From IMG/VR virus record IMGVR_UViG_2740892372_000012: 6,494 bases of DNA. The stretch is one strand, 5' to 3'. The first letter of the stretch is position 1. Each line of letters begins with the position of its first letter. A program made the position numbers and the translations under genes. The DNA is from a virus. Taxonomy: Duplodnaviria > Heunggongvirae > Uroviricota > Caudoviricetes. The notes under the pieces are model-generated. The model made no database searches and had not been told where the DNA came from. It worked only from the letters and a program-made list of their open reading frames with translations. Of this stretch, positions 1,583 through 6,488 are shown piece by piece.

Positions 1583-2029
1583 CCTCAAGCACCCGCAGCT
1601 ATTCTACTTAACTTCCCATTACCTCGCCAATATGAAATCGGTCAGAAAGACAGACGTCCCATAAGGACAACAACGGAAAAAGAGATTTTGCTTGATGCTA
1701 TTTACCTCTGCACCATGAAGTTGCGCCAAAATCCCAGTGGTGATAACAGGAATTTGGTTGTTGGTGATTGGGGAAAGAAGTACGTTAGACTGTGGGTTAG
1801 TTCATTGACATGATAGTTACCTGCCTTCAATTTCCTAAGCAAGCGATGTAAACGATAATCAATATCAAATGTATTGACAGGTAAAATAATAACGATGTAC
1901 CTTTGCTGATAACATATATCAGTCTTAAATCATAATGGAGGTAGATAAAATAACTAAACACACACAACAAATTTTTTATCAGTGACATAGCATATCTTAA
2001 GCATCCTTTAATGCTCATGGGGAGAACGC

Positions 2030-2803
2030 ATGACTAAACATATGGACATTCATTGTCAAACACGCATATTTAACTCAATTAACCATGACACCAAATATAA
2101 AATATGTATTTTTACTCCAAAAAACATTAAAAAAAATAATGCAACTCTTTATATACTTGATGGGAATAGTGCCAACAATTACATTTCTGATATTCTGCCT
2201 GTTATTGATGCACTACCCAATCCACCAGTGTTAGTTACACTTGGTTATGAATCTTGGAATAACCTTAGCATTCATCGCCGTGCTTACGATTATACTCCTG
2301 ATGGTGAAAATGCTATTGTTGATAACTCTAAACCAGCATGGATCTACTTTACTGGTGGAGGAAGCCAGTCTTTCCGAGAATTATTACTAACTCAGATCAT
2401 GCCATGGGTTAGTACTATTGCTCCGAACAGTTCCAGAATCGGTATATGGGGGCACTCGCTAGGTGCTATTTTTGTGCTTGATTGCTTAAAAAATAATTCA
2501 TGCTTTAACTATTATTATATATCTGCACCATCACTTCTATGGCAGAATGAAAGAATCATCAAGATAATTAAAGATGATATATCAGAATCAAAGCACACTA
2601 AAAGTATATGCTTGCTTAACGGAAATCTTAGCCTTGATTACTCCGCATCTTTATATCCTGAAGCCATCAAAGCGGAATCTGTTTTGAGAAATATTTTGAC
2701 AGAAAAATACAGTAATTTTTCTATTGTACAATTTCCAGAGCTCAATCATCAGGAGACTTTCTCTGCTGCACTCTGGAATAGCATTATTCATTTCAGCATA
2801 TAA
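2030..2803 (+). CDS. Alpha/beta-hydrolase fold esterase (esterase D / enterochelin-esterase-like family), no signal peptide; AT-rich cargo (moron) gene
   Basis: 257-aa ORF with GGGGAG SD 5 nt upstream of ATG 2030. Nucleophile elbow GHSLG (WGHSLGAIF), upstream LYILDGNS motif resembling the YLLDG motif of the putative-esterase family, and a His near the C-terminus (ELNHQETF) consistent with a Ser-Asp-His triad. Codon usage is strongly AT-biased compared with the flanking phage genes. Confidence 0.8.
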   Translation: MTKHMDIHCQTRIFNSINHDTKYKICIFTPKNIKKNNATLYILDGNSANNYISDILPVIDALPNPPVLVTLGYESWNNLSIHRRAYDYTPDGENAIVDNSKPAWIYFTGGGSQSFRELLLTQIMPWVSTIAPNSSRIGIWGHSLGAIFVLDCLKNNSCFNYYYISAPSLLWQNERIIKIIKDDISESKHTKSICLLNGNLSLDYSASLYPEAIKAESVLRNILTEKYSNFSIVQFPELNHQETFSAALWNSIIHFSI

Positions 2804-3154
2804 CAGAAAATATGTAATCACTTTATCAATCTAGCTAACATAACTGATATCAATCCTAATGGGTCTTTGAACATATTAAAAGATAACTTCTCATTTGTAC
2901 ATTGTTGTGTTCTTAGACCCATTTCAAAAATACTATTTTTTAGATACTAATAATTACATCCATTTAGCTATCTTCTAAATACTCCTCTCAGTTTCTTCAT
3001 TGGAGCTGATTCAACTCCGGCAATGCATACTAGGATCATTTTATAAGCATACAAACAACATCCAGACTGTGAATTATTGCTATTCATTTTCTATGTATCT
3101 GCTCTTTTCCCATCCACTGAAACACCAGAATCCAAAGGTTTCATGTTATTTTCA

Positions 3155-3568
3155 CTATTCCATCATTACTCCTGTGTAAAATATCAAAACTCGCTGCATC
3201 ACTTCACTGTTACGGCACTCACTACAAATTATGTTCAATTGCCTGTCATAGCGGCGTATTTCTCCGTCTGGTAATGACCAGATAAGGTCAGGATCAACCA
3301 CAACCGGTTTCTTCAGTTTTGCCCTCGATAGTTTTTTGCGGGCGTTTTGCCAGTCCTTACGAGCCTGTTCAGATGGGAATAACCCGTAACCAGAGTTGTA
3401 TACATCGCCACTGGCAACCAGCTCTCTGGCAAGAACGCTCATCAGATATCTTGTCGCACCTGTCTTGGCTTCCAGTTGCCGTAACGTCTCGCGCCCACTC
3501 CGGCGTACTAGCTCAACAACCTGCCCTTTAATTTTTTCCCGCTCTTCCTGTGTAAATACTTTTGCCAT
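3155..3568 (-). CDS. Hypothetical phage protein (137 aa), last gene of the replication-module operon
   Basis: ATG at 3566-3568 preceded by GGAGG (complement of 3574-3578) with a 5-nt spacer; stop TAG at 3155-3157. Start lies 15 nt after the upstream gene's stop. The ORF-track start (TTG 3583) is a less likely 5-codon extension. No recognisable catalytic motif. Confidence 0.7.
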   Translation of the reverse strand: MAKVFTQEEREKIKGQVVELVRRSGRETLRQLEAKTGATRYLMSVLARELVASGDVYNSGYGLFPSEQARKDWQNARKKLSRAKLKKPVVVDPDLIWSLPDGEIRRYDRQLNIICSECRNSEVMQRVLIFYTGVMME

Positions 3569-3583: not shown

Positions 3584-4354
3584 TCACTTTTCCGATACAA
3601 CACGGCGGGAAGAATCAGTAATCTGTCGAACAATATCCCGGTGCTTGTTCAGCTCCCGCAGCGCGGCGCAGACTCGCTCCCACTTCTGAACATCACTTTT
3701 CGCCCTGCGCAGCGCCAGGTTTGCCCTGCGAAGGGACGGAAAAATCAGCTCATCTGCTTGCGTTTCGGTAAACGATGGCAACGGCTGCACAATGTCCGCC
3801 ACAGTTTCTGTTTTAATTTCTTCCTGTGTTGCGGCTTCCCGGACTGGTAACGCAGCACCTGCTGGCTGAGGAAAGGCCTTACCATCACTTTCCGTTACCA
3901 GCGCGGCTTTCGGCTCTGCTGGTAAATTATCGCCCGGCATGCAGTAACGAAATTTACCGTTCTGATTAACGCGTGCCAGCCGCCCCGTTGCGGTTACCAC
4001 CGCCAGCGTGGAAGCAACCTTGCGAGTACTGACACCGAACTTACCCGCCAGTTCCTCACACGTTTTAGCCCCATCCTGACCGATAAACTCAATCATCATG
4101 TCTGCGGTAACTTTTTGTTCGACCTCCCCGGTCAGCATATCCTGTGCTTCAGATTTTACTGGCCGCTCTTCGGTTACCCGGGATTCACCTTCGCCAGCCA
4201 GAAACCAGGTGTGACCAGTTTTATCAACGACGCCATTTCTTTTGAGTTCCCACAGCTCGTTGACAGCCTCTTCACGACTGATTCCAAGGCGAGCTGCCAC
4301 CACATGTGAAGAGGCTTTTTTCAGTGCTTTCAGTGCGTCAGATACGGTTTCCAT
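3584..4354 (-). CDS. Hypothetical phage protein (256 aa) with two N-terminal regions resembling winged-helix/HTH segments
   Basis: ATG 4352-4354 with GGAGG (complement of 4363-4367) 8 nt upstream; stop TGA 3584-3586. Starts 21 nt downstream of the DnaC-like stop. Two similar segments (SDALKALKKASSHVVAARLGISREEAVNELWELKRNGVVDKTG and GAKTCEELAGKFGVSTRKVASTLAVVTATGRLARVNQNGK) suggest tandem wHTH-like domains; function unknown. Confidence 0.75.
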   Translation of the reverse strand: METVSDALKALKKASSHVVAARLGISREEAVNELWELKRNGVVDKTGHTWFLAGEGESRVTEERPVKSEAQDMLTGEVEQKVTADMMIEFIGQDGAKTCEELAGKFGVSTRKVASTLAVVTATGRLARVNQNGKFRYCMPGDNLPAEPKAALVTESDGKAFPQPAGAALPVREAATQEEIKTETVADIVQPLPSFTETQADELIFPSLRRANLALRRAKSDVQKWERVCAALRELNKHRDIVRQITDSSRRVVSEK

Positions 4355-4375: not shown

Positions 4376-5122
4376 TTACTTCACAACCCTCATATTGCTG
4401 ACATTTGGACGCCAGCTATCCCAGTTAAACGTCACCCATCGACCACCGTTCATGGTCATGCGGTCCATAATCCTCTCACCAAGAAGCGTACTCATTGCGG
4501 CATGATTCAGGTTTGTTAACATCCCGACACTGCACAGTGATGCTGTCCGGCGATCAATTATCTGGTGTAATACCACCTGCTCGTTTTTCGTCTCCCGCTG
4601 AACGCCTATTTCATCCAGGACCAGCAAATCAACACTGCAAAGCTCCTGTAAAAATTTTTCCCCGGATTTGCCGTTGTCGTAGCTGTCATGCAACACGCTC
4701 ATGACATCAGACACGGTGACGATAATCACGCTGCGCCCCTTCGCCATCAGCCGGTTACCCATCGCCGCTGCAAGGTGATTTTTCCCGGTGCCGGTTTTAC
4801 CGCTGAACACAAAATTCGTGCACCCGGTCATCAGTTCGTCAGCTATGGATTTGGCCTGGCTCAGCGCGTATTTTTGCCCGTCGTTCTGCACCTGATAATT
4901 CGCAAACGAGCATTTGCTGTGCAGAGGCTGGATGCCCGAACGATTCAGGATTTTTTCCACCCGCAACTGGTGATTCTGGCGGTTAATCTCCTCGCTGCGT
5001 TTTCGTCCTTCAGCAAGTTGCCATTCCCGCCACTCCTCCACCGTCCGGTACGGTGGAACCGACGCCGGTGGTGCAAGTCTGCGAATACGTTCAAGAACCC
5101 CGGCTGCCGCAATGTTTTTCAT
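4376..5122 (-). CDS. DnaC-like replicative helicase loader (AAA+ ATPase), prophage paralog of DnaC
   Basis: 248-aa ORF with Walker A FVFSGKTGTGKNHLAAAM and Walker B DLLVLDEIG, colinear over its full length with recalled E. coli DnaC (RSGIxPLH, CSFxNY, GMLTN, LLGERxMDRM, FNWDSWR). ATG 5120-5122 lies 6 nt after the initiator stop, with GGGGGTGA upstream (translational coupling). Confidence 0.9.
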   Translation of the reverse strand: MKNIAAAGVLERIRRLAPPASVPPYRTVEEWREWQLAEGRKRSEEINRQNHQLRVEKILNRSGIQPLHSKCSFANYQVQNDGQKYALSQAKSIADELMTGCTNFVFSGKTGTGKNHLAAAMGNRLMAKGRSVIIVTVSDVMSVLHDSYDNGKSGEKFLQELCSVDLLVLDEIGVQRETKNEQVVLHQIIDRRTASLCSVGMLTNLNHAAMSTLLGERIMDRMTMNGGRWVTFNWDSWRPNVSNMRVVK

Positions 5123-5128
5123 GCCACA

Positions 5129-6223
5129 TCACCCCCTGAATCCCGGCGGAATTTCGGTATCCGGTTCAGAAATATGATTCACACAACGCTGGTTGTTCGT
5201 GCCGCTTACCGGGAGCAACCAGGGGTTTTCAAAATTCCGGTCCGGCCCAAAAAACGTCGTCGCTCGCTGAACAAATTCCGTTCCCGCTTTCCCGGTCGCC
5301 GCCAGGTATCTCGCGTAACGCCTCACACCATCCAGCATGGTCTCTGGTGGCACCCCCTCGCGCAATCTGGCCTTCCAGGCACTGAATGCGGATTTCTTCG
5401 GGTTTGCTCCGGCACGCAACGGGTACTCCCGCCAGACCTGTTCGAACACATCCGGATAATCCACTCGTCCCACAGACAGCCCGGTGTTTTCCGGGACTAC
5501 CCGATCGGCTTCCCGCTGAATGGCGGAATCGGCTTCAGGCTGCTGCAGTTGGTGTGATTGCTTCGGCCTTGCGGTCATCACCTGCTGCACAGCGCCCGAA
5601 TCGGCTTTCAGCGCATACGCTGAATCGGCTTCCGGTGTCGTGCCTGCTGGCTGACCAGGATTGACGGTCTGAACATCCCCTGCCTGGTTCGTGGCGTTTT
5701 TTACGCCATGGACCATAGTGTTTTGATCTTCTTGATCTGTATCTTTATCTGTATCTTTATCTGTATCTTTATCTGTATCTTTATCTGTCGTGACTCGTCG
5801 TGACATGTGCATGACATTTCGTGACGCGCCGTGACAATCGCCATTTTGTTCCCGCTTTCTTTCCCTCTCTCGCTGCGCCCTCTTGCGCTCTGCAGGAGAT
5901 TTTGCGGTTTGCGAAATATTGCCGTTGTCCTCTTTAAGCACCTGGCGTTTTTCCCATCCAGTGATTAAATCACCATCAAGTACCCGCCCCTGCATCGTCT
6001 GCAAAATTGAATCAATTACCTCTTCTGTCACGTCGAGCGCACTTGCCAAATCTTCTGTCGTGACATCAATGTGACCTCGCGTGACATTTCGTGACGCGCT
6101 CACCAGGAGGTGGATATACACTGCCATCACTGTTGCAATTGGCTGCCCTGACACCCTGGCAATTGTTCGCCACTTAGGGTCATTTGGCATGTCATGCCAT
6201 AATCTGAGCCAGGCGTTAGCCAT
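5129..6223 (-). CDS. Phage replication initiation protein: N-terminal DNA-binding (replisome-organizer-like) domain, (DKDT)n linker, C-terminal DnaT-like (primosomal protein I-like) domain
   Basis: C-terminus ...NHISEPDTEIPPGFRG matches the recalled C-terminus of E. coli DnaT (...SEPDSQIPPGFRG). Gene order DnaT-like then DnaC-like mirrors the host dnaTC operon. Start taken as ATG 6221-6223 (GAGG SD, 5-nt spacer) rather than the GTG at 6229 used in the ORF track. Stop TGA 5129-5131. Confidence 0.85.
   Translation of the reverse strand: MANAWLRLWHDMPNDPKWRTIARVSGQPIATVMAVYIHLLVSASRNVTRGHIDVTTEDLASALDVTEEVIDSILQTMQGRVLDGDLITGWEKRQVLKEDNGNISQTAKSPAERKRAQRERERKREQNGDCHGASRNVMHMSRRVTTDKDTDKDTDKDTDKDTDQEDQNTMVHGVKNATNQAGDVQTVNPGQPAGTTPEADSAYALKADSGAVQQVMTARPKQSHQLQQPEADSAIQREADRVVPENTGLSVGRVDYPDVFEQVWREYPLRAGANPKKSAFSAWKARLREGVPPETMLDGVRRYARYLAATGKAGTEFVQRATTFFGPDRNFENPWLLPVSGTNNQRCVNHISEPDTEIPPGFRG
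5735..5788. repeat. Perfect tandem repeat, 12-nt unit atctttatctgt x4 plus a partial copy, in frame inside the initiator gene (encodes DKDT repeats)
   Basis: Plus 5741-5788 is four exact copies of atctttatctgt, preceded by a partial unit at 5735-5740. The region is AT-rich, with two GATC sites just upstream (5724-5727, 5734-5737). Confidence 0.9.
5788..5835. repeat. Cluster of five phased (G/A)TGAC direct repeats at about 10-bp spacing (putative iterons, cluster 1)
   Basis: tcGTGAC at 5788-5794, 5798-5804, 5819-5825; gcATGAC at 5809-5815; ccGTGAC at 5829-5835. Spacing 10/11/10/10 bp, about one helical turn. The motif falls in different codon phases of the overlapping initiator ORF, so it is conserved at the DNA level, not the peptide level. 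Confidence 0.6.
6058..6095. repeat. Second cluster of four phased GTGAC direct repeats (putative iterons, cluster 2)
   Basis: GTGAC at 6060-6064, 6071-6075, 6081-6085, 6091-6095. The 18-mer tgacatttcgtgacgcgc is identical at 5812-5829 and 6082-6099, and both clusters are preceded by the same ctgtcgtgac 10-mer (5785-5794, 6055-6064). Confidence 0.6.
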
Positions 6224-6488
6224 ACTCACCTCTTCTGATACCGAATCTTTTTACTCACGAGTTGCCGGAAGCGATTCGATATGGCTATTATCACTCAATG
6301 CACTGCCACAGCATTTCCTGCCGGGCCACCACGGTTCATCTGATTGAAACCGGCGATTGCCACTGCGACAAAATCATCAGCGTCTCTCACCAGTCGCTCC
6401 CGCGTCTCCACCAGCTCCCGAAAATAAGCTGAACTGAACCGCCCCGGGAATCCTGGAGACTAAACTTCCTGAGAAAGAGGTAAACAGG
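6224..6488. promoter_or_regulatory. Divergent intergenic control region between the leftward replication operon and a rightward gene starting at 6489
   Basis: No convincing ORF on either strand over about 265 bp. Plus-strand AAGAGG (6475-6480) followed 8 nt later by ATG 6489, with the gene running off the window. Candidate minus-strand -10 GATAAT (complement of 6287-6292) upstream of the initiator. Promoter elements are not confidently resolved. Confidence 0.35.

Follow-up and report, generated by a model that had tools for sequence, protein, structure and literature searches.

Introduction

The origin of replication of phage lambda lies within gene O, where four iterons are combined with a 39-bp region of high AT content, and in-frame deletions in the AT region leave the O protein functional (PMC6022878). 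In phage SPP1, oriL is located in gene 38, and its AB boxes and AT-rich unwinding element are sufficient for theta replication in vitro (PMC5737612, PMC6316719). The Rep boxes of plasmid pSK41 have a central position in rep and are bound by the DnaD-like N-terminal domain of the protein, while the linker encoded by the origin is dispensable (PMC5703833). Here, we analysed a 6,494-nucleotide stretch of viral DNA (IMG/VR record IMGVR_UViG_2740892372_000012, Caudoviricetes; referred to below as the window), in which the replication initiator gene of an Escherichia coli prophage contains two arrays of a short, regularly spaced motif. The original prediction, made from the sequence alone, had proposed these repeats as a candidate origin. 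The conservation of the arrays, the concerted change of their core, their linkage to the N-terminal domain of the initiator, the adjoining AT-rich run and the uniqueness of the arrays in complete genomes all support this proposal, and on these computational grounds we consider it likely that positions 5685-6100 are the vegetative replication origin, bound by the initiator and embedded in the prophage's own initiator gene.

The initiator gene contains two phased arrays of a six-base motif

The elements of the putative origin and the gene that contains them are as follows.

5129-6223, minus strand: initiator gene, 364 amino acids from the ATG at 6223, with GAGG in front of the ATG
6059-6095, minus strand: iteron array A, four head-to-tail copies of GTCACG at 6090-6095, 6080-6085, 6070-6075 (GTCACA) and 6059-6064
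5789-5835, minus strand: iteron array B, five head-to-tail copies at 5830-5835, 5820-5825, 5810-5815 (degenerate, GTCATG), 5799-5804 and 5789-5794
6027-6032, plus strand: single inverted copy (GTCACG) between the arrays, encoding part of LDVTE
5716-5788, no strand assigned: AT-rich, strand-asymmetric zone directly after array B, a candidate DNA-unwinding element
5685-5715, no strand assigned: inverted repeat (hairpin) with a 13-bp stem and a 5-nt loop, beyond the AT-rich zone as seen from array B

Read on the plus strand, array B shows CGTGAC at 5789, 5799, 5820 and 5830 and CATGAC at 5810, and array A shows CGTGAC at 6059, 6080 and 6090 and TGTGAC at 6070, CGTGAC being the reading of seven of the nine copies. 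The shorter word GTGAC starts at 5790, 5800, 5821 and 5831 in array B, with an ATGAC variant at 5811 (steps of 10, 11, 10 and 10 bp), and at 6060, 6071, 6081 and 6091 in array A (steps of 11, 10 and 10 bp), and the offset from block to block is 270 bp. The nine phased GTGAC repeats originally described thus come down to eight exact copies in two blocks and a degenerate ninth, while their reported spacing of 10-11 bp and the distance of about 270 bp between blocks were both reproduced. The blocks also share an identical 18-mer, TGACATTTCGTGACGCGC, at 5812-5829 and 6082-6099, as had been stated, and a lead-in, TCTGTCGTGAC, at 5784-5794 and 6054-6064, which is identical over 11 nt and hence one base longer than the 10-mer reported before.

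This clustering is rarely reached by chance. Eight of the 13 plus-strand GTGAC words of the 6.5-kb window fall within the two blocks, and at least four GTGAC per 50 bp were found in only 1 of 2000 composition-preserving shuffles. All copies lie within the initiator open reading frame (ORF) on the minus strand. Owing to the period of 10-11 bp, they are all on one side of the helix, and successive copies occupy different codon phases, so that all three phases are used (xxG TCA CGx, GTC ACG and xGT CAC). Translation of the array gives the peptide ASRNVTRGHxDVT; array A codes for amino acids 43-55 (ASRNVTRGHIDVT) and array B for linker residues about 130-146.

Among 80 near-identical relatives of the window, block B has five exact copies in 74, and the third position reads GTCAC in the example sequence of every copy-number class, which identifies the ATGAC of the window as a derived point change.

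Selection at the DNA level preserves the arrays

The original prediction had argued from the differing codon phases that the motif is selected at the DNA level. We examined synonymous sites in 22 homologous loci of less than 90% nucleotide identity, using conserved four-fold codons, and the claim was confirmed. Third-position entropy was 0.15 bits within the motif (n=7) and 1.73 bits outside it (n=24; Mann-Whitney p = 4e-5), with no overlap between the two sets. Within the motif, V47 was encoded by GTC, T48 by ACG, G50 by GGT and V54 by GTC in 22/22 loci each, H51 by CAC in 21/21 and T55 by ACG in 21/22. Arg49, which lies in a spacer and serves as an internal control, was free to vary and used CGA, CGT, CGC and CGG, and at conserved residues outside the array all synonymous codons were in use. 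Since neighbouring sites are saturated, very recent common ancestry is excluded as the cause of this synonymous conservation. The arrays are therefore maintained by selection on the DNA, independently of the peptide that they encode.

The core word changes in concert in both arrays

Homologous loci were collected from a scan of one genome per species (52 loci), two viral-contig scans and a phage collection, and 87 loci were left after removal of near-duplicates. Nearly all of them share a common anatomy, in which array A lies at about nt 117-165 of the gene and array B at about nt 355-480, followed by an AT/purine-rich run; the array B position holds 3-6 copies in homologues of all classes. 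The place, number and spacing of the motifs are kept from E. coli to Pseudomonas, Aeromonas, Bordetella and others, and the two-array layout recurs at the same gene positions in dozens of gamma- and beta-proteobacterial prophages. Homologous phages also carry the repeats at these positions, with 4 + 4 copies in Pseudomonas phage phita81A and 4 + 3 in Aeromonas phage pAEv1818.

The core word itself differs between lineages, namely tGTCACG (209 units), CGAACGC (248 units), GTAACG or GTGACG, which gives a family consensus of (GTC/GTG/GTA/CGA)ACG with a spacing of mostly 10 bp and otherwise 11 bp. In the first set of loci, the same core was present in both arrays in all 44 cases where both could be called (27 GTCAC, 12 GAACG and 5 GTAAC). 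When strict phasing was applied to the 87 loci, 67 were concordant, 3 were discordant by majority call and 17 had no call in one or both arrays. Two of these discordant loci still had the array B core in array A, and in the remaining one, L127, both cores occur in array B. A change of core is accompanied by a change in the peptide that array A encodes (SRNVTRGH compared to SNATERGRT). The inverted copy is more restricted: it was found at gene nt 193 in 18 of 26 GTCAC-class loci, where the valine is always encoded by GTG, and has no counterpart in the other iteron classes, and its role is uncertain.

The N-terminal domain of the initiator is the constant partner of the arrays

Neither the C-terminal domain nor the neighbouring genes go with the arrays. 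Among 84 complete ORFs, at least 18 unrelated clusters of C-terminal parts can be distinguished, and these are combined with the iteron classes in shuffled fashion; for 23 GTCACG-class loci the upstream genes form 18 clusters and the downstream genes 8. The downstream partner is a DnaC-like gene in the window and a DnaB-like helicase gene in Pseudomonas, and is absent in phage Tritos. Pseudomonas carries both GTCACG-class and GAACGC-class elements. The initiator of Escherichia phage PhiR5_2 (L004) has the same C-terminal half but another N-terminal domain, and the arrays are absent from it. As judged from these comparisons, the N-terminal domain is the only constant partner of the arrays.

PhiR5_2 has repeats of its own at about 3090-3400, where two direct copies of GAAGGGGCT stand beside a (GAACAG)n run and two inverted copies of GAAGGGGCT lie about 250 bp off, inside the part of the gene that codes for the N-terminal domain. 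This comparable layout suggests that a two-cluster design may be general for this initiator group.

In the complete genomes of phages Tritos (46 kb) and pAEv1818 (41 kb), the two arrays are the sole chains of phased motifs on either strand; pAEv1818 has an additional inverted pair between them. We also performed the reverse test and searched with the bare pattern GTCACGN4GTCACGN4GTCAC, which retrieved 120 viral contigs. In 84 of these, the pattern lay inside a recognisable N-terminal-domain gene and on the gene strand. At least two other contigs (L261 and L229) had it in more distant ORFs that belong to phrog_1408, 'replication initiation protein' in PHROGs, and in several of the remaining contigs the array was followed by a periodic, strand-asymmetric run. 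A Pfam search with four of the distant array-bearing ORFs gave no assignment. In the plasmid collection, the only matches were large plasmids that carry prophages, records of chromosome size and two circular Pseudomonas phage genomes of 50.9 kb.

The viral contigs L319 (about 10060-10140), L227 (about 3987-4030) and L316 (about 12150-12190) additionally contain phased arrays with 4-8 copies of GTCAC(G) that, to judge by the surrounding ORFs, apparently lie outside any long ORF on the array strand. The same mini-iteron may therefore also serve origins that are not embedded in an initiator gene.

An AT-rich zone and a fold-prone segment follow array B

The zone directly after array B has a GC content of 28-33%, compared to 55-63% elsewhere in the initiator gene, with a minimum of 28% at 5720-5779. 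It contains 4.9 copies of a 12-bp tandem repeat, TCTTTATCTGTA, at 5730-5788 (gene strand AGATAAAGATAC, peptide DKDT), and the original placement of the arrays inside the initiator gene and beside an AT-rich tandem repeat was accurate. The copy number of this repeat ranges from 1 to 5 among the 80 near-identical relatives, in the manner of a variable-number repeat located within the putative unwinding element. In 76 loci, the AT content of the 45 nt that follow array B is 67-68% and their purine content on the gene strand 75%, compared to 45% and 53% further downstream. This AT/purine-rich run is kept across all iteron classes and usually reads (AGATAA/AGATAC)n; in 37 of 41 loci, GATA keeps to one reading frame and is translated as D-K/D-T repeats. 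The zone fits an AT-rich unwinding element by its composition only. GATC occurs at 5725 and 5734, both inside the zone, and is scarce in the window as a whole (11 found compared to 25 expected from dinucleotide-preserving shuffles).

The hairpin at 5685-5715 has a DNA folding energy of -10.9 kcal/mol (z = -5.7), and none of 200 shuffles was as stable. In the same 76 loci, folding windows that start 20-40 nt after array B had a mean z of -1.2 to -1.6, and z was below -2 in 30-39% of loci at that place, compared to about 5-9% in windows downstream of the zone. This segment, of which the hairpin is the local version in the window, could act as DNA or could simply result from a peptide motif. We observed that the fold-prone segment is often of the CCCCC...GGGGG type, encoding PPxxPRG. 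The hairpin, the inverted copy at 6027-6032 and the derived nature of the ATGAC copy were all absent from the original prediction.

The initiator and its predicted partners

The relevant features of the initiator and of the gene next to it are the following.

5939-6223, minus strand: N-terminal winged-helix domain, amino acids 1-95
5828-5896, minus strand: basic helix, amino acids 110-132, followed by the linker and the C-terminal domain
5873-5875, minus strand: codon of Gln117 in the basic helix, a candidate specificity residue
5132-5191, minus strand: last 20 residues of the initiator (QRCVNHISEPDTEIPPGFRG), matching the C-terminal tail of host DnaT
4376-5122, minus strand: DnaC-like helicase loader gene, directly 3' of the initiator gene (Pfam IstB_IS21, 4e-19)

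The GTG at 6229, which is the start in the ORF list, lies within a Shine-Dalgarno-like GAGGTG, and homologues begin at MAN-W. An AlphaFold model of amino acids 1-134 (pLDDT 79.8) has helices at 4-14, 16-25, 29-45, 56-63 and 67-77, a loop at 46-55, a beta hairpin at 78-87, a disordered stretch at 98-108 and the basic helix at 110-132. The modelled N-terminal fold is a winged helix that is nearest to the DnaD N-terminal domain and a plasmid RepA. Array A codes for the last residues of helix 29-45 together with the following loop and array B for the start of the linker, and both of these protein segments are places that tolerate sequence change. Loci without array A (L119 and L190) have unrelated loop peptides and the same array B core, indicating that the loop is a passenger rather than a reader of the motif; a self-referential reading, in which the loop peptide encoded by array A recognises the iteron, was rejected for the same reason.

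At E <= 0.01, the full initiator matched no Pfam family, that of lambda O included, and a lambda O-type Pfam model was absent for either half of the protein at E <= 10. The N-terminal domain gave a match to Phage_rep_org_N (PF09681, the SPP1 G38P N-terminal domain), which spans profile positions 1-119 of 121 at E = 0.009 and scores 16.4 bits, below the gathering cut-off of 23.3. A sequence search of the Protein Data Bank with a profile of the N-terminal domain returned no match. PHROGs assigns the initiator to phrog_3729, 'replication initiation protein', and RefSeq names it 'phage replisome organizer'. We also considered the Rac prophage oriJ/YdaU system, and rejected it because YdaU of K-12 belongs to the DUF1376 proteins, differs in its N-terminal domain and represents a separate family.

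Residue 117 follows the core word. Glutamine occupies this position in 27 of 28 GTCAC-class loci, and every locus with an xxACGC core has W, H, F or Y; from this covariation we regard it as a candidate specificity determinant.

The last 20 residues of the initiator are identical to E. coli DnaT residues 160-179 at 14 of 20 positions (pairwise E = 6e-8). The similarity does not extend over the length of DnaT, as the alignment covers the last 20-25 residues only, and the label 'primosomal protein I' in some phage records rests on this DnaT-like tail. By its resemblance, the tail is a candidate docking peptide for a DnaC-type loader or for DnaB; how DnaT itself recruits DnaB/DnaC is stated to be unknown (PMC13377028). 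The product of the adjacent gene is a loader of the DnaC/IstB type, matching PF01695 (4e-19) and NCBIfam PRK12377 (1.5e-153, above its cut-off) and being 48% identical to E. coli DnaC over 243 amino acids; against the DnaC model NF005931 it scores 297.8 bits (6e-89), below the equivalog cut-off of 357. Since phage Tritos has the same initiator and no DnaC-like gene, the tail may also work with host DnaC.

The window represents the early-right region of a lambdoid E. coli prophage, and its replication genes occupy the same early-right position as in lambda. Prophages of O145 strains such as RM9872 match it with 99.8% identity; at least 80% of the 6.5 kb was matched in 447 of 5426 complete E. 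coli genomes, the best matches being O145 strains of Shiga-toxin lineages. The gene set on the minus strand comprises the initiator, the DnaC-like loader, a DUF1627 gene, a DUF977 gene and a hok toxin gene. This phage operon is broken up by an AT-rich island at 1680-3150, which looks like a moron-type insertion; a plus-strand ORF at 2030-2803 in the island (257 amino acids) has a weak alpha/beta-hydrolase/esterase match and is named 'alpha/beta hydrolase' in RefSeq.

Discussion

Our results point to an initiator-dependent origin in which array B and the AT-rich run are likely to form the core. In such an origin, monomers of the N-terminal domain, with the winged helix and the basic helix 110-132, would occupy neighbouring iteron copies in head-to-tail order along one face of the helix and assemble into a nucleoprotein complex resembling the O-some. 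This complex would place stress on the supercoiled DNA, such that the adjacent AT-rich run at 5716-5788 melts, and the C-terminal domain with its DnaT-like tail would bring in the phage DnaC-like loader and host DnaB for loading on the opened strands. Array A, about 220-270 bp upstream in the segment coding for the winged helix, would act as an auxiliary or regulatory cluster, which might raise the local occupancy of the initiator, loop the DNA or feed back on transcription of the gene.

Several observations weigh against this origin model or limit parts of it. The window has one mutated copy (GTCAT), and its prophage may be defective. Not every locus has array A, since L119 and L190 have array B only, and the distance between the arrays, 250-350 bp in the family, is not in helical phase, leaving cooperation between them unproven. 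For the AT-rich run, the shared frame of GATA means that selection on DNA and selection on protein are not separable. The covariation at residue 117 reflects few independent switches and is confounded by shared ancestry. Additional origin components were not recovered either. The two GATC sites named in the original prediction do lie in the zone, but as an origin feature they failed, with no enrichment across the 76 loci (3.8/kb in the zone compared to 4.0 in the rest of the gene), and DnaA boxes were likewise dismissed (21 matches with at most two mismatches in the window compared to 19 expected, none of them notable in the origin). Finally, the literature we searched holds no binding or replication experiments for this initiator family.

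We weighed the origin against three other accounts of the repeats. The arrays might be initiator-binding sites used mainly for control, as autoregulatory roadblocks within the transcript of the initiator itself or for titration or handcuffing like incA of P1, with the true start elsewhere. Such a role would suit array A, which lies at a distance from the AT-rich run, 130 nt inside the coding sequence, and can be lost, as in L119 and L190. The spacing of the two arrays is not phase-locked, and plasmid iterons do both jobs (PMC3401445). Array B, on the other hand, is always joined directly to a conserved AT/purine-rich run, and in many loci to a hairpin. An array next to an AT-rich run is the anatomy of origins that have been tested (PMC5737612, PMC6022878), and the two complete genomes have no other phased array. 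We therefore consider control as the main function unlikely, and because control and initiation are not exclusive, this account mainly concerns array A.

Even less probable, in our judgement, is that the repeats are bound by another factor, such as a CII-type phage regulator or a protein of the host, and serve packaging, partition, an antisense promoter or a similar function. CII-type activators recognise tetranucleotide direct repeats one turn apart, with a 10-bp period, and there is a weak promoter-like match on the plus strand at 5811-5838. Yet two blocks of 3-6 copies exceed the needs of an activator site, and genes next to the same core are variable (18 upstream and 8 downstream clusters), with the N-terminal domain as the sole constant partner. 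The presence of both core classes in Pseudomonas argues against a host factor, and an antisense promoter formed by the repeats was rejected since the region has two promoter-like sites (9/12 matches each) compared to 1.0 expected from shuffles. There is hardly any room left for the view that the repeats are a by-product of a repeated peptide or a recent duplication and have no function as DNA. It is true that the blocks encode similar peptides in the same frame, ASRNVTRGHIDVTT and ASRNVMHMSRRVTT, and have the 18-mer and the 11-mer in common. However, successive copies are read in different codon phases, the peptide changes wholesale with the DNA core, and loci without array A combine unrelated loop peptides with an unchanged array B core. 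The peptide-repeat explanation is ruled out by the synonymous-site test, in which positions inside the motif were frozen while those in spacers and elsewhere were saturated.

The initiator-bound origin also allows a more detailed version, which we put forward tentatively and regard as rather improbable as a whole. A head-to-tail filament of winged helices on one-turn mini-iterons would point into a periodic, strand-asymmetric run and from there continue onto one particular single strand or pass over to it, making the module a phage counterpart of the DnaA-box/DnaA-trio module for unwinding in bacteria. Runs of this type are (AGATAA)n in the window and GAATCC, ACAGG or GAACAG in distant relatives. 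The second array, by its position in the segment coding for the DNA-binding domain, would tie specificity to the initiator, so that the module could switch specificity and move between phages as a unit.

If the origin is as proposed, these findings provide a concrete origin of about 420 bp for the replication module of many E. coli prophages, a module that is also present in prophages from Pseudomonas, Aeromonas, Serratia, Bordetella and further proteobacteria. Together with the candidate residue, the natural specificity classes (GTCACG, CGAACGC, GTAACG and GTGACG) would offer a ready system for the study of initiator-origin co-evolution and a source of origin parts with defined specificity for engineering, and could help to predict replication incompatibility or cross-activation between co-resident prophages. 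Origin annotation also becomes feasible in genomes whose initiator has no Pfam assignment. We found no description of GTGAC/GTCAC iterons or of the origin of this family in the literature searched, the coverage of which was incomplete, such that an earlier description is possible.

The original comparison with ori-lambda inside gene O is apt. As in lambda, the putative origin lies in the initiator gene with iterons followed downstream by an AT-rich region, the part that unwinds in lambda, the initiator is modular, with an N-terminal part predicted to read the iterons and a C-terminal part predicted to recruit the loader, and the protein segment encoded by the origin tolerates change (PMC6022878). 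In contrast to the 18-bp palindromic repeats of lambda, the window has nine asymmetric 6-bp cores that recur once per turn and form two clusters separated by about 220-270 bp, one of which is inside the segment coding for the DNA-binding domain, and the loader is DnaC-like (AAA+) rather than lambda P. The order of a tail-bearing initiator gene followed by a dnaC-like gene is that of the host dnaT-dnaC operon; apart from the tail, the initiator is unrelated to DnaT, and DnaT does not bind a specific origin.

SPP1 oriL and the pSK41 Rep boxes are closer still (PMC5737612, PMC5703833). SPP1 likewise has direct repeats, the AB boxes bound by its initiator, and an adjacent AT-rich unwinding element within the gene of that initiator, G38P, a 'replisome organizer' that works with the loader G39P and the helicase G40P. 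SPP1 differs in being a lytic phage of Gram-positive bacteria with other repeat units and an initiator whose Pfam similarity to ours is sub-threshold, and its second G38P-binding region (oriR) is 13 kb away, whereas the second array of the window is in the same gene. The RepA_N plasmid pSK41 belongs to Gram-positive cocci, has four Rep boxes in one cluster and shows no detectable sequence similarity, whereas the module of the window involves a DnaC-like loader and a DnaT-like tail. Taken together, the regularly spaced direct repeats in the coding sequence of the initiator and the selection acting on them as DNA place this locus among the iteron origins within initiator genes, a known kind represented by lambda, SPP1 and pSK41, of which it would be an unusual member in having one-turn mini-iterons that are split into two arrays.

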